Of a stretch of DNA of 64,000 nt, positions 4,906 through 64,000 are shown one piece after another (position 1 is the first letter of the stretch; the number at the start of each line of letters is the position of its first letter). The position numbers and the translations under genes are program-made. This stretch comes from an uncultured Holophagales bacterium (GTDB taxonomy: Bacteria; Acidobacteriota; Thermoanaerobaculia; Multivoradales; UBA5704), in assembly GCA_963842525.1 (NCBI GenBank), contig CAWJGT010000023.1, forward strand, positions 96,001 to 160,000. The letters are read 5' to 3'. Below the pieces are notes generated by a model. That model made no database searches, was not told where the DNA came from, and saw only the letters and a program-made list of their open reading frames with translations.

Positions 4906-6741
4906 TCAGGCCACCTTGCGGTCGTCGACCCGCTGCTGCATCGCCCGTGCGACCTGGACCACGGACAGGTCACCGGGCGCGACCAGGTAGGCGCCGCCGT
5001 CGTAGGAGGTCGCCACCACGTGATCGCCGCTGCGCGCGAGCGAGCTGATGCCGTTGCCCGCGATCTCCCGGCGCGTCACCTTGCCGCTGGCGAGCTCGAC
5101 GCGGATCACCGTCCCCCAGTAATCGCCGACCACGACCGTGTCCTCGTCCCAGAAGCAGAGCGACTTGAGCGAGCGGCGGCCGAGGGGGATCGAGTGCAGG
5201 AGCTTGCCGTTGTCGAGCTGGAAGACCTTGACCGTGAAGTCGCGCGAGACGCTGGCGAGCCGTTCGCCGCTCGGGTCGAGATCGACGTCGTTGATGATGG
5301 CCGTGTGGCCGAGGTAGCTCTCCAGGAGCTCGCCCTCGAAGCTCCAGCCGAGCAGCAGGCCGTCGGCGCCGCAGCTCACGCCCATCGTCTTCGCCGGGTG
5401 CAGGCGTAGCGACTTGACGGCGCCCTCGTGGACGTGGATCTTGCCGCGCACCTGGCCGTCGGGGCCAACGCGCACGATGGCGCTGCTGTAGCAGCCGACG
5501 AACGACTCGCGCTCGTAGCCCGGGTGATGGGCGATGCGGATGGTGTTGATCGGCCCTTCGCCGAGGAAGACCTCGATGCCGTCGCGCAGGTTGCCGTCCG
5601 CCAGGCGGTAGATGTGGATCTTGTTGTCGTGCGCGCCGCCGACCACCATGCCGTACTCCTCGTCGAGGGTCACGGCGTTCATCAGCATGCGGCCCGAGGC
5701 AGGCTCGATGCGGGCGCTCCAGGAGGCCTCGTCCGGGGTGAGCCGGCCGAGGCGGATGTAGCCGTCGTCGCTCACCAGGGCGACCGTGCCGCCGGAGGAC
5801 GCCGAGGCCTCGTTGAAGCAGGCGTTGCCCGGCTCCTCGTCGATCCGGCCCACTTCCCGCGAAAGCCGGCCCGAGGCGGCATCCCAGACCAGGACCGTGC
5901 CGTCGAAGGTGCCGGCCACGATCTGCGAGCCGTCCGGGGTCCAGCTCAGCGAGCGCTCCCAGACCGAGGGGACGCGCTCCAGGCGGAGCTTTTCTTCGAA
6001 GGTCTCGCCGTCCCAGACGATCAGCTTGCGGTCGTAGGCCGCCGACAGGACGTCCCCCGTGGCCGGCGACACCGTAACTTTCTTGATGCCGGAGGTGTGG
6101 GCAGGGATCTCGCGGACGAGGTCGCCGGTGCCGGTGTCGAAGATGCGGATCGCGCCGTCGTCGCAGCCGAGGATGGCGCGGCCGTGCACCGGGTCGATGG
6201 CGCAGGTGTCGGTCTCGTTCTCGAACGGCCCCCAGACGCTCAGCAGCTCGCCGGTGTCGAGGTCCCAGACCCGCAGCGTCTTGTCGTCGCCCGAGGAGTA
6301 GATCCGGCCGTCCTGGTAGGCGAGCGACAGGACGTCCTTCTCGTGGCCTTCGAGGATGCGGAGGATGGCGCCCGTATTGAGGTCCCAGACGAGCACGCGG
6401 TGGTCGCGCGACGCCGAGACGCCGACCGAGTCGCCGGCAAAGACGAAGTCCTCAACGTCGTCGCTGTGCCCGCGCAGCACACGCAGGGGCCGGCCGGTCT
6501 CCAGGTCCCAGATGCAGGTGGTGTAGTCCGACGAGCAGGAGGCGGCCCGGCGGCCGGACGGATCGACGATCAGGCGGTTGACGAGGTGGCGGTGATAGCC
6601 CAGGAGCTCGACCTCCCCGGTCTTCAGATCGAACCGGGCGACTGCCCCGTCATAGGCCGAGGTCACGGCCTTGTCGGTCCCCGGGACGGCGGCCACACCG
6701 GTGACGGGCCCCCGGTGGCGCAGGAAGCTCAGCGAAACCAT
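4906..6741 (-). CDS. WD40-repeat double beta-propeller protein resembling toxoflavin biosynthesis ToxC
   Basis: Many GH..WD repeats. The N-terminal pattern H.GP..G.AA..TSAYD..H.HLVN..SSDY..GHSDDVE..ASRDHRV matches my recollection of ToxC. Strong RBS (AAAGGAG). Start overlaps the PKS-NRPS stop. Confidence 0.8.
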   Translation of the reverse strand: MVSLSFLRHRGPVTGVAAVPGTDKAVTSAYDGAVARFDLKTGEVELLGYHRHLVNRLIVDPSGRRAASCSSDYTTCIWDLETGRPLRVLRGHSDDVEDFVFAGDSVGVSASRDHRVLVWDLNTGAILRILEGHEKDVLSLAYQDGRIYSSGDDKTLRVWDLDTGELLSVWGPFENETDTCAIDPVHGRAILGCDDGAIRIFDTGTGDLVREIPAHTSGIKKVTVSPATGDVLSAAYDRKLIVWDGETFEEKLRLERVPSVWERSLSWTPDGSQIVAGTFDGTVLVWDAASGRLSREVGRIDEEPGNACFNEASASSGGTVALVSDDGYIRLGRLTPDEASWSARIEPASGRMLMNAVTLDEEYGMVVGGAHDNKIHIYRLADGNLRDGIEVFLGEGPINTIRIAHHPGYERESFVGCYSSAIVRVGPDGQVRGKIHVHEGAVKSLRLHPAKTMGVSCGADGLLLGWSFEGELLESYLGHTAIINDVDLDPSGERLASVSRDFTVKVFQLDNGKLLHSIPLGRRSLKSLCFWDEDTVVVGDYWGTVIRVELASGKVTRREIAGNGISSLARSGDHVVATSYDGGAYLVAPGDLSVVQVARAMQQRVDDRKVA

Positions 6742-34015: not shown

Positions 34016-39413
<5,398 letters not shown>

Positions 39414-57533: not shown

Positions 57534-58154
57534 CTACCGGCGCCGCCACAGATCGAGCTGTGCACGCAGCCGTTCGACAGGGAAACTCCCTGATCGTAGA
57601 ACCACCGGACCCGGCTCCTCTATTGCCACCAGCGTCGACGGCGGACCGCCGGGCAGGACTCCGCCGTCCACCACCACCGCATTCTCGCCTGCCAGAAGCG
57701 CGGCAGCCTCCTCTGGATCGAGGACCGGCGCGCCGCCGCTCCGGTTGGCGCTGGTGGCGGTCAGGCCGTGCCCGAGCTCTGCAAGCAACCGCCGCAGGCC
57801 GTCGTGCCGGGGGATGCGGACCGCGAGGGTCGGCTCCCCGGCGGCGGCCGGCACCGGCCGCGCGAGCGGCAGGAGCACGGTGAGGGGCCCTGGCCAACAC
57901 GCCGAAAGAGGCTCCAGTATAGGGAGGTCGGGATCGATTCCCAAATCCGCGAGCTGCGCGAGATCCGCGACCACCACGGGGAGCGCCTTGCCCCGTTCCC
58001 GCTCCTTGATCCTGTAGATCGTCTCAACCCCGATCGGGTTCCATGGATCGGCGCCGAGGCCGTAGCTCGACTCGGTGGGAATGGCGAGCACACCGCCGCG
58101 GGTGAGGACCGCGCGCAAGGGGGCGACGGGGTCGCCGGGACGAAAGATCCTCAC
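57534..58154 (-). CDS. tsaC: L-threonylcarbamoyladenylate synthase (YrdC/Sua5)
   Basis: IPTESSYGLGAD, IKER, WPGPLT, TATSAN and PSTLV. Confidence 0.9.
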   Translation of the reverse strand: MRIFRPGDPVAPLRAVLTRGGVLAIPTESSYGLGADPWNPIGVETIYRIKERERGKALPVVVADLAQLADLGIDPDLPILEPLSACWPGPLTVLLPLARPVPAAAGEPTLAVRIPRHDGLRRLLAELGHGLTATSANRSGGAPVLDPEEAAALLAGENAVVVDGGVLPGGPPSTLVAIEEPGPVVLRSGSFPVERLRAQLDLWRRR

Positions 58155-58161
58155 CCCCTGT

Positions 58162-58201
58162 CCCCCTCTCCCATCGCCCCCCCACCGACCGGGAGAGGGG
58201 G
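58162..58201. repeat. REP-like palindrome
   Basis: CCCCCTCTCCC (58162-58172) pairs with GGGAGAGGGGG (58191-58201). Confidence 0.5.
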
Positions 58202-58317
58202 GATCACCCGATTAGTGATCTCAGCGGTGTTCATGTGATCTCATTGCGGCCTTCCTCGGGGGGAAGAGGTTCCATGTGTTGCCATTTTGGACCAATTCTC
58301 GCCAGAAAGCGTTGAGC

Positions 58318-58353
58318 TGTGTGACCCGTGTGTGACCCAAGTTATGCTATACT
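58318..58353 (+). promoter_or_regulatory. Tandem 10-bp direct repeats (candidate integrase arm sites) and an extended -10 element
   Basis: TGTGTGACCC at 58318 and 58329, then TGCTATACT just before the integrase ATG at 58361. Confidence 0.5.
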
Positions 58354-58360
58354 TACGCCC

Positions 58361-59665
58361 ATGAGCTACAACATCAAATTTGAGGATCGCACCCTGCGCG
58401 GTCTCCGCGTTCCCGATGGCAAGGACAGGCAGGAATGGAGTGACACGGTGGTCCCGGGGCTTCGCTTCCGCAAGAGCGATAGGGGGCATGGCTCCTTCTC
58501 CGTCGTCTACAGGGTCAAGGGTCAGGACAAGCAGGACCGCAGGACCATCGGACCCTTTCCCAGGCTCTCGATCGCTCAGGCCCGGGAGGAGGCTCGACAG
58601 GATCTTAACGCCGCCAGCTCGGGACGGGACCCGAAGAAGCTCCGGATGGCTCCTCCCGAGGCTCCCGAGGAGCGCCCCATTACCTTCGCGGAGCTCTTCG
58701 AGCTCTACATGGAGCGCCACGCTCGCGACCATCTCGCGACTTGGTACGACGTCCAGCGGCGGGTCCGCAAGGATGTGATTCCCGTCATCGGCCAGATGCC
58801 CGCTGGCGAGGTGCGCAAGCGCCATCTCCATCTGGTCATCGACCGGCTCGTCACCGGGGGGCACGCCGTCAGCGCTCGCGGCCTGCTGTTTGTGATCTCG
58901 GCTGTCTTCACCTGGGCCGAGGGGCGCGAGCTCGTCGAGTACAACCCGGTCCGGCGCTTCCCCTACCCCAAGCCGGCCGTGCCTCCGGAACGCAGGAGTC
59001 TTTCCGACGACCAGCTCCGGGCGCTGTGGTTTGCCCTCCTGGAGATCGCCGACCAGCCGGTGCCCGAAAAACAGGAGGAGCTGCACAACGGCCAGTTCAC
59101 TACGACCCGGGATCTGTTCGCTTTGGTGGTGCTGACGCGGCTCCTGCTGGGCCAGCGCACCACCGAAACCGTCGGCATGCGCCGCCAGGATCTGGAGGCT
59201 CAGTGGTGGAACCTGCCTGGCTACATCGGGCGGCGGCGGTACACGAAGACGGGACGGGATCACCGGGTGCCGCTGCTGCCGCTGTGGAGCGAGTATGTGC
59301 TGCCGCGCGTCGAGAGGTTGAGTGCCGGGCGGCCGTATGTCTTCCCCAGCGATCGGCTGCAGGACCAGCACCTCCACGCCGAGAGCATTACGTCGTTCTG
59401 TTCCCGAGTGTCGGCCAAGGTGGGCTTCCCCTTCGTGGCTCGCAACCTGCGGACGACGTTCCTGACTTCCATGGCTCGGCTTGGTGTGCCGCAGGAGGTC
59501 CGGCGGCGTCTGGTCAACCACACTGATGGGACCATCGAAACGATTCACTACAACCTTTATGACTACGACGCCGAAAAGTGGGCGGCCGGGCTGCGTTGGG
59601 ATGCCCATCTTCGGGGCATCTTTTTCGGCGAGACGGCTCAGGTAGCGCCCTCTCAGGCCGCCTAG
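58361..59665 (+). CDS. Tyrosine integrase with N-terminal arm-binding domain
   Basis: WSDTVVPGLRFR..TIGPFPRLSIAQAR. Catalytic R (GQRTTE), K (TKTG), RNLR, H (VNH) and Y (HYN). Confidence 0.92.
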   Translation: MSYNIKFEDRTLRGLRVPDGKDRQEWSDTVVPGLRFRKSDRGHGSFSVVYRVKGQDKQDRRTIGPFPRLSIAQAREEARQDLNAASSGRDPKKLRMAPPEAPEERPITFAELFELYMERHARDHLATWYDVQRRVRKDVIPVIGQMPAGEVRKRHLHLVIDRLVTGGHAVSARGLLFVISAVFTWAEGRELVEYNPVRRFPYPKPAVPPERRSLSDDQLRALWFALLEIADQPVPEKQEELHNGQFTTTRDLFALVVLTRLLLGQRTTETVGMRRQDLEAQWWNLPGYIGRRRYTKTGRDHRVPLLPLWSEYVLPRVERLSAGRPYVFPSDRLQDQHLHAESITSFCSRVSAKVGFPFVARNLRTTFLTSMARLGVPQEVRRRLVNHTDGTIETIHYNLYDYDAEKWAAGLRWDAHLRGIFFGETAQVAPSQAA

Positions 59666-59671
59666 GTGGCT

Positions 59672-59732
59672 AAAACCGGCTGCCTGCTTCCGGTTTTTCA
59701 GCGGAAAACCGGCTGCGGGCAGCCGGTTTTTT
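59672..59732. terminator. Bidirectional intrinsic terminator-like hairpin preceded by an imperfect copy
   Basis: AAAACCGGCTGC-GG-GCAGCCGGTTTTTT between the convergent integrase and AlpA genes. Confidence 0.65.
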
Positions 59733-59984
59733 CTAGGCGGCCCAGTCGCGCCGGCCTTCTTGCCATTCGCGGAGCTTGTCCACGCGAAAGGCTTCCCTGC
59801 CTGGGCTTAGCGTCTCCGGAGCGGGGAATCGGCCGACCGCGATTTCCCGCCGCAATGTGGACCGGGACAGGCTTGACCAGTTGATCACCTCGGGCCAGGT
59901 CATGAACCGGGGGAGCACCTCACGGACGTTGGACAATGTGTGGCGGCTCGGCAAGGGCTGATGCGGTCTGCGGTCGTTTTTCAT
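59733..59984 (-). CDS. AlpA-family regulator/excisionase
   Basis: RFMTWPEVINWSSLSRSTLRREIAVGRFPAPETLSPGREAF..W. Confidence 0.85.
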   Translation of the reverse strand: MKNDRRPHQPLPSRHTLSNVREVLPRFMTWPEVINWSSLSRSTLRREIAVGRFPAPETLSPGREAFRVDKLREWQEGRRDWAA

Positions 59985-60127
59985 TGGTTTTCTCTATTGG
60001 GACCCTGAATGCTACGTTCCGCACAGTGTATGTGTAGAGCGGCATCGATGTCAAGGGAAAGGGCAGGAATTCCGGGTTTTCCGAGAGGGGATTGCTTATG
60101 CGGCTAGCGACACCGTATCATGTTGGT

Positions 60128-60508
60128 ATGGCTGCTAAAGATCCCTTTGAAGGACTTGGACAAGCGCTCGCCCGACTCCGGGAGTGGCGCGGCTTCGCGA
60201 CGCAGACGGATGCGGCAGAGGCCCTTGGCTTCGACAAGGGTCAGTTGTCGCGCTGGGAGAGTGAGAAACCTCGGCCCACTCTCGAGAACCTCGGCCGCCT
60301 GCTTGCGGCCTACGGAGTCGGCCTGGCGGACCTGGTGGCTCTCTTGGAGGAGGTCCGCCGGCCGAAGCGGAAGACACTGGATCGATTGGCCTATGACGCC
60401 GAGATGGCCCGGTTGAGCGAGTTGCTTCGGCAGATGGAGGAGAACCAGGCCGAAGCAAAGAGCCGATTGAAGACGCTCGAGGGGCTGTTGTATGAGAGCA
60501 AGGGATAG
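60128..60508 (+). CDS. XRE-family HTH repressor
   Basis: LARLREWRG..TQTDAAEALG..QLSRWESEKPRPTLENL, a C-terminal coiled coil, and divergent orientation to AlpA. Confidence 0.88.
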   Translation: MAAKDPFEGLGQALARLREWRGFATQTDAAEALGFDKGQLSRWESEKPRPTLENLGRLLAAYGVGLADLVALLEEVRRPKRKTLDRLAYDAEMARLSELLRQMEENQAEAKSRLKTLEGLLYESKG

Positions 60509-60519
60509 CCTGCCGGGCC

Positions 60520-60728
60520 GAAAGGGTGCACTCCGCTGCACCCTTTTCCGAGAAAGGGTGCAATGGGCTGCGCCCTTTTCTGCCGAAAGGGCGCAATGGG
60601 CTGCGCCCTTTTCCCGAGAAAACGCGCGCTTGGCCGCACCTTTTCCGCGAGAAACGCGCGGCGGGCCGCGCTTTTTTCCGCGAGAAAACGCGCAGTGGGC
60701 CGCGCCTTTTTCCACGAGAAACGCGCGG
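60520..60728. repeat. Tandem array of ~6.3 degenerate 32-34 bp palindromic units
   Basis: Units start at 60520, 60552, 60585, 60618, 60651, 60684 and 60718, e.g. GAAAGGGTGCAATGGGCTGCGCCCTTTTC. A related copy lies at ~62482-62509. Confidence 0.85.
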
Positions 60729-60974
60729 CTTATAGGTTGAATGTCGGACAGGGCCAGGCCCTATCTCTACCTGGAAAAGAGCTGGGCGGCTGGGACGGAC
60801 ATGGAGGGTCTTCGGGCGGAGCTTCTATGTGGACCACCGGTGTCAAGCGTCTCAGGGTTGTTCGTCCTCCCCTCCTTTTTGGGTGGTTTCGCCGAGGGCT
60901 TCTGCATCGCGTTGGGGCGTTTGGTCTCCCTTTCAGTTTCTGGCGCTTGCCGGTGTGCCAGGACCTGGTCGTCC

Positions 60975-61140
60975 TTTCCAGCTTCTATCCGTGCTGACCT
61001 CACCTTTGGGTCAGGCACCAAATGCAGCATGCGCTGCGAGCGACTCAGGCAAGCTTTAGGAGCGGCCCCATCTGAGGAAAACGGTTCGGAAGCCCGAACC
61101 AAGCTCCGCCCCGGGCACGCTCCACCAGTCTTTCTCGGAG
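60975..61140 (-). ncRNA. Candidate IS110 bridge/seek RNA (boundaries approximate)
   Basis: Two hairpin-centred loops whose flanking segments match the insertion flanks (11/11 nt and 6-8 nt) and the element ends. Confidence 0.65.
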
Positions 61141-61182
61141 ACCTCCCCTCTTGTCCCTCCTTACCTGGAATTCTGTTCCAGA

Positions 61183-62310
61183 CTACTTGGTCTTCAGCTC
61201 AGCACCATCAGGAATCACTCCGTAGTCCAGATAGCGCCACAGCGCGATCAGCAGCTTGCGGGCCAGGGCCACGATCCCCACCCGCCGAGAACGGCGACTC
61301 CCAGGGCCATAGCGCTCCCGAAACCACAAGCTCAGGCGGCTCTGCGGTTGGAAGCGCAACCATCCCCAAGCGATCTCGATCGCCATCACCCGGATCCGGC
61401 GATTCCCCGCCTTGCTGATCCCCTGTTCGATGTTGACCGTGTCACCACTCTGATAAGGCATCGGCGCCAGACCCGCCAAACCGGCCACCTCTCGACGGTT
61501 GCGGAACTGCCGCCAACCGAAGAATTCCACCACGAACAGCCAACCACTGCTGTCCCCAATCCCCTTGAGCTTTTGCAGCCGCTGCACCTTTTCCGTCGCT
61601 TCCACTGTGGCCTTCTGGCGAAATCGTTCGACCGCTGCAATCTGACTCTCCAGAAGAGCCAGCCGCTCGCCCTCTCGCCTCAGACGCTCCCGCAAGCTCG
61701 AAAGCAGCCTCTCGCCGTTCCACTGCGTCGCCTGATCCAACTGCTGCAGGAAGCCCTTGCCGACCTTCACTCCCCGAGCCCCCACGCTGGCCAGCAGGCC
61801 CTTGATCCGATTCGTGTGGGCCGTCCGCTCCTGCTTCAGCGACTCAAGCTCCCGGGCCAGGTGACGCTCATCCTCCTGCTCGGGCGTCGGCGCGTGCGCC
61901 ACCCCGAACACCTTCTTCTCCCCGCGCTCGTAACGGATCAACAATGACAGCAACTTCTCCACGTCCACCCCATCCGTCTTGGCCCGCCGATGCCGCCGAT
62001 TCACCTCGATGCTCGAGGAGTCCATGACGACGTTTTCCACTCCTTCCGACAGCAGGAACCGATGCAACCAGAACCCATCCCGCCCGGCCTCGTAGCAACT
62101 CACCACCCGAGCCGACTCCGGCACGCCGAGGCGATGCTTGGCCCGAGCGATCTCCAGCATCAGCCCGTTCAGATCGCCGGCCGCAACCGTCCGCTGACTC
62201 GCCTTGCGTCCAGCCTCCACACCAAACCCCAGCCTCCACTCGCTGGCGCCGAGCTCCAGGGCCATGTGCAACACCGCCTCCGTTCGCGTAGACTCGGTCG
62301 TCTGGTTCAT
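61183..62310 (-). CDS. IS110-family DEDD transposase/recombinase
   Basis: ALELG, CYEAGRDGF, RAKTDGVD, GLAPMPYQSG, GISKAGN and VALARKL. RBS GAAAGGAG. Confidence 0.95.
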   Translation of the reverse strand: MNQTTESTRTEAVLHMALELGASEWRLGFGVEAGRKASQRTVAAGDLNGLMLEIARAKHRLGVPESARVVSCYEAGRDGFWLHRFLLSEGVENVVMDSSSIEVNRRHRRAKTDGVDVEKLLSLLIRYERGEKKVFGVAHAPTPEQEDERHLARELESLKQERTAHTNRIKGLLASVGARGVKVGKGFLQQLDQATQWNGERLLSSLRERLRREGERLALLESQIAAVERFRQKATVEATEKVQRLQKLKGIGDSSGWLFVVEFFGWRQFRNRREVAGLAGLAPMPYQSGDTVNIEQGISKAGNRRIRVMAIEIAWGWLRFQPQSRLSLWFRERYGPGSRRSRRVGIVALARKLLIALWRYLDYGVIPDGAELKTK

Positions 62311-62559
62311 CGGGGTTCTCCTTTCTAACCCGTTAAAGTTCCCCGAAACATACAACCGGCGACCCGCTTTTGCATCCCCCCTCGCCCTGCATAGCATCTG
62401 AGATGGACCGGCGTAGCGGTAGGGCCTCAACTGCCCGCCTGGATACTCCCAAAAAACGTGCACTCGGCTTCCCCTTTTCTTGAAAAGGTGCAATGGGCTT
62501 CACCTTTTCCTGGGGTGCTTGCAAGAGAGCGCCGGCCTCTCTAGGCTGAGCGGCTCAGA

Positions 62560-63993
62560 ATGAACGTTGATCTCTGGCCGCATCGGCTCTTCTGGATGGG
62601 GGATCCTCGGGCGGTGGCGTTTTTCAGTGTGAAAGTCCCGGTTGACGAGCTGGGACCCTGGCCCTGGGAGGAGTGGCGCCCCTGGCAGCAACGCTCGACA
62701 TCCACGAAGCTGCTCGATGGATGGTTCGGGAACAACAAGCAGCACCTCCGCCGCGACTCCTTCGCCGCTAGCAACCGCTTCTATGGCTGGCACCGCGCCC
62801 AGGAGTATGTCGTCCGCCTGGGTGCGACTTTTGTGGACATCGATTGTGGCCGCAGCGCCTTCGACCTTTCGGCCCTGGAGGCCGCGGACATTCTGGTCGG
62901 GCTCGTGGATCTCGGCTTGCTGGTGCAGCCTTCGATGTTCCAGTTCTCTGGCCGGGGCTTGTGGGCCTTCTGGCTCCTCCGCGACGAGGAAGACTCGAGC
63001 ACGACTCCTTTCGCGAACGCCCACAACCGGGAGCTGTGGACGTCGCTCCAGCAGCACACGGCCGACACGATCGCGGAGGCTTTCCCGAGCCTGAAGCTGG
63101 ACCGGCCGGCGGGCGAGCTCACCCGCGTGACTCGGCTGCATGGAAGTGTGAATCCCGCGGCTGGCCGGCGAGTGCGTTACGAGCTGCTCCCGAATGCGGC
63201 CGGCGAGCCGGTCCGCTACAGCCTGGAGGAGCTGGCCGATTTCTACGGCCTGTGGCGGCCTGGCCGTCTCCGGCCTCTCGACGAAGCCGAGGAGGACCGG
63301 CGAGATCTGGCGCTCGAAGCCCACCGCAGGCGAGAGGACGCGCGGGAGGAGGAACGCCAGCGGAAGGAGGCCGTCCAAGCAGGGGGCGGTCCGAGCCACT
63401 CGGAGCGGGGACGGCAGGGACACGTGAAGCTCTGGCGAAATCGGTTGCGCTTCCTCGATCGGGTGCGGGACGAAATCTATGGCGGTGTGATCCCCTGCGG
63501 CCACCGGTACCACATGCTCTCCGCCTATGCCTACTGCTACGCGAAGCTGATGCAGGATTTTTCGGAGCTGGCGGGCAAGGTGGCGACGATCGGCCGCAAG
63601 TACTGCGCGCAGCCGGCGGGAGACTTGATCACGGACGCCGAGCTGCGGCGGATCACGGCGCACGCCCTGGGATGGGCTCGGAGCGGGCACCAGATCACGA
63701 ATCGGAAGCTCGCGGCCTTTGCGGGCCTCGATCCGGTGGCGGACCGGGAACGGATTGAGCGGCTCGGCTTGAACCTCTCGACCGGCCCCAAAGGTCGGAA
63801 CGAGCGAACGCAGGCGCGGCGCGAGTTGGCGCGGGAGATTCTTCGGGCGGCGCTCGATCGCGGCGAAGATCCGCCAAGCGCGCGGAAGCTCGCGCAGGTT
63901 CTCACGGATCAGGGGTGCGCCACCGGGCGATCGACTGCGCATGCGCTCCTGGTGGAGCTTTCGGCGGAGCTCGGGCGCGGAGATGGCCCGTAG
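62560..63993 (+). CDS. Replication protein, AEP/RepB'-primase-like N-terminal domain with C-terminal HTH
   Basis: FVDID, QPS..FSGRGLWAFWLL, RVTRLHGSVN and a C-terminal PSARKLAQ..GRSTA helix-turn-helix. Confidence 0.6.
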   Translation: MNVDLWPHRLFWMGDPRAVAFFSVKVPVDELGPWPWEEWRPWQQRSTSTKLLDGWFGNNKQHLRRDSFAASNRFYGWHRAQEYVVRLGATFVDIDCGRSAFDLSALEAADILVGLVDLGLLVQPSMFQFSGRGLWAFWLLRDEEDSSTTPFANAHNRELWTSLQQHTADTIAEAFPSLKLDRPAGELTRVTRLHGSVNPAAGRRVRYELLPNAAGEPVRYSLEELADFYGLWRPGRLRPLDEAEEDRRDLALEAHRRREDAREEERQRKEAVQAGGGPSHSERGRQGHVKLWRNRLRFLDRVRDEIYGGVIPCGHRYHMLSAYAYCYAKLMQDFSELAGKVATIGRKYCAQPAGDLITDAELRRITAHALGWARSGHQITNRKLAAFAGLDPVADRERIERLGLNLSTGPKGRNERTQARRELAREILRAALDRGEDPPSARKLAQVLTDQGCATGRSTAHALLVELSAELGRGDGP

Positions 63994-64000
63994 ACGCGGC

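Follow-up and report, generated by a model that had tools for sequence, protein, structure and literature searches.

Bridge recombinases are under development as programmable DNA-insertion tools, with work mostly on IS621-like enzymes. Two kinds of described system stand closest to the locus presented here, an insertion sequence (IS) that, to judge from its sequence, belongs to the IS110 family and lies on the minus strand of a 64,000-nt stretch of DNA from an uncultured Holophagales bacterium (the window, G000:C23:96001-160000, in a genome of 9.95 Mb). In IS1111-type elements, as described in those parts of two studies that treat their layout (Durrant 2024; Siddiquee 2024), the left end is short, the right end is long, and there are subterminal inverted repeats; the bridge RNA or seekRNA lies downstream of the gene, and its match to the top strand of the target is located 5′ of its match to the bottom strand. 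The transposases of this group are given, in the section that concerns them, as 330–350 aa in length with a GL-P----S(t)G motif (Siddiquee 2024). For IS621, the portion of the published description concerned with the RNA assigns the left target guide (LTG) to A50-U58, the right target guide (RTG) to G77-G80 and the handshake guide (HSG) to residues 81-82; the corresponding portion on the protein places the active site at D11, E60, D102, D105 and S241.

The element in the window is very probably an IS110-family element of IS1111-type layout whose right end encodes a two-loop bridge (seek) RNA with both target and donor guides. An original prediction, made from the sequence of the window, had as its central idea a bridge RNA with guides that match the insertion site and the element's ends, and this idea is backed by covariation both among sublineages in the same genome and across the wider family. 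A DNA search of the genome retrieved copies of three sublineages: A, with two copies, the second 99% identical to the copy in the window; B, with five full copies and one partial copy at ∼88% DNA identity; and C, with four copies at ∼76%. The flanks of the 11 full copies, which the prediction had proposed to compare, reveal ends common to all, host repeats that differ and targets that follow the guides.

Three empty paralogous sites of the A type in this genome (L013, L015 and L020) read ...GGGCGGAG-CT-GAG..., in summary form GGGCGGAG-CT-GAGATGG, and the occupied A site reads GGGCGGAG-CT-[TCTATGTGG...GCATAGCAT]-CT-GAGATGG. Comparison of filled with empty sites thus delimits the IS body, with a single CT on either side; the filled site exceeds the empty one by the element plus one CT, and there is no target duplication past the shared core.

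60824-62397, minus strand: IS body, 1574 bp (1576 bp including one core copy), from the empty sites L013, L015 and L020
60822-60823, unstranded: core CT (AG in gene orientation) at the right-end junction, from empty sites and aligned copies
62398-62399, unstranded: core CT at the left-end junction, from empty sites and aligned copies
61183-62310, minus strand: recombinase gene, 375 aa plus stop (open reading frame 62310-61186, stop 61185-61183)

In gene orientation the left end begins ATGCTATGCAGGGCG and the right end finishes CCACATAGA in all 11 own-genome copies, so that the junctions, marked here by slashes, read AG/ATGCTATGCAGGGCG ... CCACATAGA/AG in sublineages A, B and C alike. The non-coding ends measure 87 nt upstream of the recombinase gene vs 362 nt downstream. 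Empty targets of B (13 copies in the genome) and C (19 and 22 copies) likewise carry the dinucleotide alone, and these uninterrupted targets are located inside palindromic repeats that resemble repetitive extragenic palindromic (REP) sequences. The core is the usual 2-nt CT, and TCT is the end of the element. The 3-nt core of the original prediction, which had read the empty site as GGGCGGAGCT-TCT-GAGATGG, stems from a misreading of this dinucleotide; one paralogous site, L017, does have the sequence GGAGCTTCTGAG.

When the non-coding ends 3′ of the gene are aligned for all 11 full copies, a conserved scaffold with two hypervariable patches emerges. In the first (61111-61102 in A), sublineage A has GGGCGGAG-CT, B has GCCCAGGG-CT and C has GCGCCAGG-CT, each of which is the exact reverse complement of the core and the 8 nt beside the right end. 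In the second (61076-61069), A and B share CTC-AG-ATG and C has TAA-AG-ATG, a stretch composed of 3 nt of the left-end flank, the core, and left-end nt 1-3. As RNA of the gene strand, the two patches correspond to the predicted target guides, the shorter of which, with CUC in A, CUC in B and UAA in C, tracks the left-end flank.

61102-61111, minus strand: long target guide in the 5′ strand of the target loop, GGGCGGAG-CU, covering 8 nt of flank and the core
61069-61076, minus strand: short target guide in the 3′ strand of the target loop, CUC-AG and then AUG, covering 3 nt of the other flank, the core and left-end nt 1-3

The first of these matches had been noticed as an exact reverse complementarity of 61101-61111 to 60814-60824, which holds; with CT as the core, its eleventh base (T at 61101) matches the first base of the element itself and not the target.

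Distant relatives show the same relationship. The family to which the protein belongs is very large (at least 8000 database candidates scored, all with E below 1e-10), and relatives are encoded in 586 of 605 candidate stretches from species-representative genomes. From the 586 stretches we kept 80 loci, 48–62% identical, from Chloroflexota, Acidobacteriota, Planctomycetota, Gemmatimonadota, Burkholderiaceae and others, and placed the element ends via end motifs alone, with the guides unused. Complementarity of at least 7 nt between the 5′ loop strand and the right flank was present in 31 of 57 loci, compared with 18 of 3178 cross-pairs; at a threshold of at least 8 nt the counts are 22/57 and 4/3178. 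The 3′ loop strand matched the left flank immediately 5′ of the core over at least 4 nt in 27 of 55 loci (47 of 2950 cross-pairs). Much closer relatives, in soil metagenome contigs of 90–99% likeness, carry a guide change, 61106 C>T, together with a flank change, 60819 G>A, at the same position of the guide-target match, and the pair of changes is compensatory. In run X3 both changes and one contig that joins the flank to the RNA region share a depth of 15.6, which makes it most likely that they lie on one contig; only 7 nt lie between the flank change and the end of the contig. Run X1 has them on two overlapping contigs of similar depth. These alignments indicate that the target-loop guides follow the flanks in three sublineages and in distant relatives of many phyla.

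The proposed donor loop contains two further guides, one for each end of the element.

61022-61024, minus strand: donor guide CAU, complementary to left-end nt 1-3 (ATG)
60982-60988, minus strand: donor guide AUAGA-AG, with the same sequence as the right end's final 5 nt and the core

Both lie in features that the original prediction had pointed out correctly, namely ATGC at 61022-61025 and the copies of AGCTTCTAT at 60820-60828 and 60980-60988 (2 found vs 0.05 expected in the window). In 45 of 61 loci the donor triplet is the reverse complement of left-end nt 1-3, including the rare combinations ACA/TGT and AGG/CCT; none of 10,000 permutations reached 45, the highest value being 29. The two nucleotides after the triplet are not complementary to the core. 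At the other end, the RNA and the right end of 64 loci with a single right-end motif read ATAGA/ATAGA in 56 cases, ATAGG/ATAGG in six, and CTGGA (RNA)/ATGGA (end) in two, such that a matching change in the RNA accompanies every one of the eight variant right ends (6 ATAGG, 2 ATGGA). The donor-loop guides, by this covariation, track the element ends. Near these ends, the element's own copies and the relatives share a subterminal inverted repeat.

62390-62394, unstranded: left-end arm of the subterminal inverted repeat, CTATG in gene orientation
60825-60829, unstranded: right-end arm of the subterminal inverted repeat, CATAG in gene orientation

The CTATG/CATAG pair is perfect over 5 bp and its extension (CTATGCAGGGC vs CTATGTGGACC) matches at 7 of 11 positions, the norm for the IS1111 group being 7–17 bp; in the relatives the repeat takes the form CTATGnAGGG vs CCCTCATAG.

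The structure of the putative RNA was assessed with a covariance model built from four own-genome sequences (187 positions, 39 pairs). The alifold consensus of these four sequences mis-paired the donor hairpin at an alignment gap and was discarded in favor of a structure set by hand. In this structure the two variable patches form opposite strands of an internal loop between an outer stem and the inner 7-bp hairpin. Both this hairpin and the second one, in the donor loop, had been predicted at the positions at which they are found.

60939-61126, minus strand: bridge RNA, 188 nt, with 5′ and 3′ ends set by the covariance model only
61113-61123, minus strand: target-loop outer stem, 5′ strand (helices 1-2; 94.7% and 98.5% of cells paired)
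61059-61068, minus strand: target-loop outer stem, 3′ strand, pairing with 61113-61123
61083-61100, minus strand: target-loop inner hairpin, 7 bp with a 4-nt loop (helix 3)
61048-61054, minus strand: donor-module closing stem, 5′ strand GCUUGCC (helix 4; both-side changes in 7/7 pairs)
60945-60951, minus strand: donor-module closing stem, 3′ strand GGCAAGC, pairing with 61048-61054
60991-61018, minus strand: donor-loop internal hairpin (helix 8)

A covariance model of the non-coding end had been suggested as a check on the prediction; searched at E up to 1, it gives 75 matches in 73 of the 80 relative loci, every one on the gene strand and all just 3′ of the gene except for one weak outlier (L089:564-641, E 0.73). 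Across the resulting 75-row alignment (69 distinct rows), standard pairs make up 89.0% of cells, vs 63.8% after shuffling and about 39–45% in slid controls, and 37 of the 39 model pairs have changes on both sides. G-U pairs are frequent on the gene-sense strand (pairs 49/88 and 50/86 have 10 UG cells each), which argues for an RNA of that strand. Taken with the guide matches, the conserved pairing indicates that the downstream non-coding end encodes a two-loop bridge (seek) RNA. An Rfam scan of 58000-64000 (E up to 1) returned no family for it, the sole match being a sub-threshold ar14 located elsewhere.

The recombinase matches NCBIfam NF033542 (‘IS110 family RNA-guided transposase’) with 179.6 bits (cutoff 140), in an alignment that starts at residue 57, and Pfam PF02371 (Transposase_20, the C-terminal Tnp domain) with 61.4 bits (cutoff 21.3); the N-terminal PF01548 scores 22.2 bits, under its cutoff of 29. 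In an alignment of 43 sequences down to 46% identity, E74, D113, D116 and S288 are invariant and E19 and G289 are at least 90% conserved, and residues 280-289, GLAPMPYQSG, conform to the motif GL-P----SG. At position 19, within the motif ALELG, 11 of 12 close homologues have Glu and the remaining one has Asp; a motif search gave Glu in 60 of 62 loci, and in the two ‘D’ matches the search pattern had been misplaced. The Glu to which the original prediction drew attention as the first DEDD residue is real and held across the clade, as a conservative Asp-to-Glu change that does not set the enzyme apart as a new type. A literature search that paired ‘EEDD’ with ‘IS110’, in that single spelling, found nothing. 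An AlphaFold2 model of the protein (predicted local distance difference test score, pLDDT, 84.9) has the strand order of RNase H, with E19 near the end of strand β1 and E74 at the end of β4, which are the sites of the first two acidic residues in the RNase H fold. In Foldseek, the solved structures that come closest to the model over its whole length are those of the bridge recombinases IS621 and ISCro4 (E 4e-11 and 6e-11). By position relative to IS621, the active site of the model would consist of E19, E74, D113, D116 and the S288-G289 pair.

In the model that these features suggest, the gene for the recombinase separates a short left end from the long right end encoding the bridge (seek) RNA, and the RNA would be transcribed and bound by the recombinase. 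In the target loop, GGGCGGAG-CU on the 5′ strand would pair with one target strand (8 nt and the core) and CUC-AG on the 3′ strand with the other (3 nt and the core); the AUG that follows the short guide could pair with the incoming left end after strand exchange, in the manner of a handshake guide. In the donor loop, AUAGA-AG would read the right end and CAU the left end. A recombinase tetramer, with a RuvC-like site of E19, E74, D113 and D116 and with S288 as the nucleophile, would then join a circular form of the element to the target at the shared CT, without target duplication. The predicted circle junction is ...CCACATAGA-AG-ATGCTATGC....

One further feature lies near the right end.

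60842-60847, minus strand: TTGACA, -35-like hexamer near the right end, candidate half of a circle junction promoter

In the relatives CTTGAC is visible ahead of the right end; 67 of 79 rows gave a right end with TTGAC at most 35 nt upstream, although the motif is itself part of the locating rule. TTGACA may act in a promoter formed at the junction of the circle. All 24 sequencing runs listed in a search were contigs, none with half or more of the sampled words. In the four runs that were compared with the element, no circle-junction or empty-site joint was found, the joints there being replacements or stemming from other relatives. A ‘terminator-like’ match at 61101-61082 was also considered and proved to be the inner hairpin of the target loop.

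Several observations weigh against the model. Donor triplet and left end disagree in 16 of the 61 loci, the long-guide match falls below 6 nt in 17 of 57, and the short-guide match is 0–1 nt in 11 of 55; several of these weak guide matches, long or short, are interruptions by one mismatch, but not all. Because the loci are mutually related, the cross-pair and permutation figures overstate independence, and the alignment behind the pair counts was fitted to the covariance model and is therefore biased toward the structure. On the protein side, the putative equivalence of E19 to the first DEDD Asp is drawn from its position in β1 and from conservation, and a profile comparison with IS5075 by hhalign (probability 98.3) aligns from residue 73, at the YEAG motif, onward and misses the N-terminal strands. 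The spacer of the putative junction promoter is long in the window copy (∼20 nt), and a promoter scan of the integrated element found no promoter of the sigma-70 type. RNA-library contigs (X15, X16) extend over portions of the gene and of the non-coding end; as contigs they prove neither transcription nor RNA ends nor strand.

Three other explanations of the same features were weighed. The target loop might work alone, as a short seekRNA, with the protein reading the ends via the subterminal inverted repeats and the donor guides being nothing but conserved sequence. Such a division of labor would fit the RNAs reported in the relevant part of one study, which are mainly 82–96 nt long and hold both target matches (Siddiquee 2024), as well as the very short donor guides (3 nt; 5 nt plus the core) and element ends so nearly invariant that they offer little variation for testing those guides. 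The RNA nonetheless varies with the ends where they do vary, in all eight variant right ends and in the 45 matching left triplets with their rare ACA/TGT and AGG/CCT combinations, and the closing stem of the donor module is changed on both sides in each of its seven pairs, so that we consider this explanation improbable. Less probable still is that the guide-like stretches function at the DNA level, for instance as hairpin guides in single-stranded form like those of IS200/IS605. Although the run data, being contigs, prove no transcript, the gene-sense G-U pairs at 49/88 and 50/86 would be C-A on the other strand, and the recombinase fold resembles those of IS621 and ISCro4, both solved with bridge RNA.

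That the matches in the window copy arose by chance, or as an insertion scar without function, is barely credible. The 8-mer CATCTGAG is indeed present at 61069-61076 and 62395-62402, as originally predicted, but taken alone it is within chance (2 found, 2.29 expected). The 9-mer in the donor loop and the 11-mer of the long guide, with three occurrences in the window vs 0.08 expected, are far above chance, and covariation of these positions with the flanks, in three sublineages as well as in distant phyla, already contradicts an accidental origin. The third occurrence of the 11-mer, at 36420-36430, is an unrelated match. A bridge RNA with target and donor guides therefore remains the reading that we prefer.

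Some individual copies and sites deserve mention. In one B copy, L007 (G000:C11:201264-202825), the recombinase frame stops after 48 codons and the bridge-RNA region is intact; the partial B copy, L012 (G000:C9:1835723-1836563), consists of the right-end half alone (query 42-910). The left-end motif AGATGCTATGCAGGGCG occurs 13 times in the whole genome vs the 11 full copies from the DNA search, and the extra motifs may be further diverged or solo ends. The A-target paralogue L017 (G000:C4, about 6285-6372) has GGGCGGAGCT-TCT-GAGG and is 3 nt longer than the other empty sites. A second CT lies 3 nt inside the right end of the element (window 60825-60826), and excision via this inner CT would yield the L017 sequence; L017 may be an excision footprint or a plain repeat variant. 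The 13-nt A target (CTC-AG-CTCCGCCC) is found at two more sites, G000:C9:1311755 and C9:1335773, both outside the repeat family and unoccupied. Among the relatives, L081, a Burkholderia ambifaria scaffold, has two matches to the covariance model in tandem 3′ of one gene (1600-1782 and 2002-2198); in the second, the two strands of the target loop are reverse complements of each other (5′ strand ATCTAGGTAAAC), and the loop would close on itself.

The host repeat of the window copy is ∼100 nt long. Arrays of a ∼33-nt tandem repeat (unit like GAAAGGGTGCAATGGGCTGCGCCCTTTTCC) flank the insertion site at 60517-60726 and 62453-62509, and the host repeat recurs near similar arrays elsewhere in the genome (L013, L015). 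The arrays in the window lie between genes for a tyrosine integrase (58328-59665) and a helix-turn-helix (HTH) protein (60092-60508) and a 477-aa open reading frame without a Pfam match (62560-63993), a setting that resembles the iteron-type region of an integrative element.

The locus and its relatives provide a clean annotated example of the layout with the RNA 3′ of the gene, with four guides assigned and the core defined, in which natural retargeting can be seen three times in one genome, and they offer a starting point for work on a divergent enzyme. For annotation, they account for the long ‘non-coding’ tail of an IS common in soil bacteria and for the repeat-specific sites of its copies. 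Understanding of how such systems work is unchanged by the locus. The original prediction had taken the RNA 3′ of the transposase, the core and the Glu together as marks of a candidate new recombinase. The position of the RNA is as predicted, but it is that of the IS1111-type layout in the published accounts, so far as these set it out (Durrant 2024; Siddiquee 2024), and, the design being already published, the three features make no new type. The element falls in an apparently deep-branching clade, widespread among soil bacteria, and its distinctive traits are modest, namely Glu as the first acidic residue, the lengths of its guides, and the presence of three retargeted sublineages within a single genome. 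Tentatively, and with slightly more doubt than confidence, we raise the idea that these elements constitute a deep branch of their own among bridge recombinases, distinct from both the IS621-like and the classical IS1111-like ones, with a Glu-Glu-Asp-Asp site, a guide geometry of its own and three sublineages retargeted by guide changes alone. Such a branch may be spread over the soil phyla Acidobacteriota, Chloroflexota and Planctomycetota as well as Burkholderiaceae, and its geometry may comprise target guides of 10 nt and 5 nt, the latter with a handshake of 2–3 nt, and a minimal left-end guide of 3 nt that skips the core. If this is true, its members would be a naturally reprogrammed, possibly orthogonal set of recombinases.

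Among described elements, ISEc11, ISPa11, ISKpn4 and ISPst6, as presented in the pertinent parts of Siddiquee 2024 and in Figure 6 of Durrant 2024, resemble the window element in their long non-coding end 3′ of the gene and their subterminal inverted repeats, and the parts of these accounts that describe the IS1111 type extend the likeness to the order of the guides, top-strand before bottom-strand, to the motif seen here as GLAPMPYQSG and to repeated extragenic targets. The window element departs from the IS1111 type in its perfect inverted repeat of only 5 bp and in the Glu at the first acidic position; its recombinase, at 375 aa, exceeds the 330–350 aa of the excerpted IS1111 descriptions and is ∼27% identical to those of IS5075/IS4321 over residues 111-358, with the N-terminal 70 residues unaligned. 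With IS621 and ISCro4 (8WT6-9, 9T56) it shares the overall fold, the CT core and the SG nucleophile motif, and, by the portions of the IS621/ISCro4 descriptions that cover the RNA, two loops with, in the CT orientation, the long guide on the 5′ strand and the short guide on the 3′ strand, followed by 2–3 handshake-like nucleotides. Sequence similarity to these two is found in the C-terminal domain only (E 1e-6 to 3e-5). It differs from them in that the RNA lies 3′ and not 5′ of the gene, with the element reversed relative to the target as read by the guides, and in that the left-end donor guide is 3 nt long and leaves the core uncovered. ISPpu9 of Pseudomonas putida is placed in the IS110 group, and its downstream Ssr9 RNA is unneeded for transposition and is not the bridge RNA. 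Because the recombinase is far from both reference groups and longer, we file the element under the IS110 family with an IS1111-type layout.

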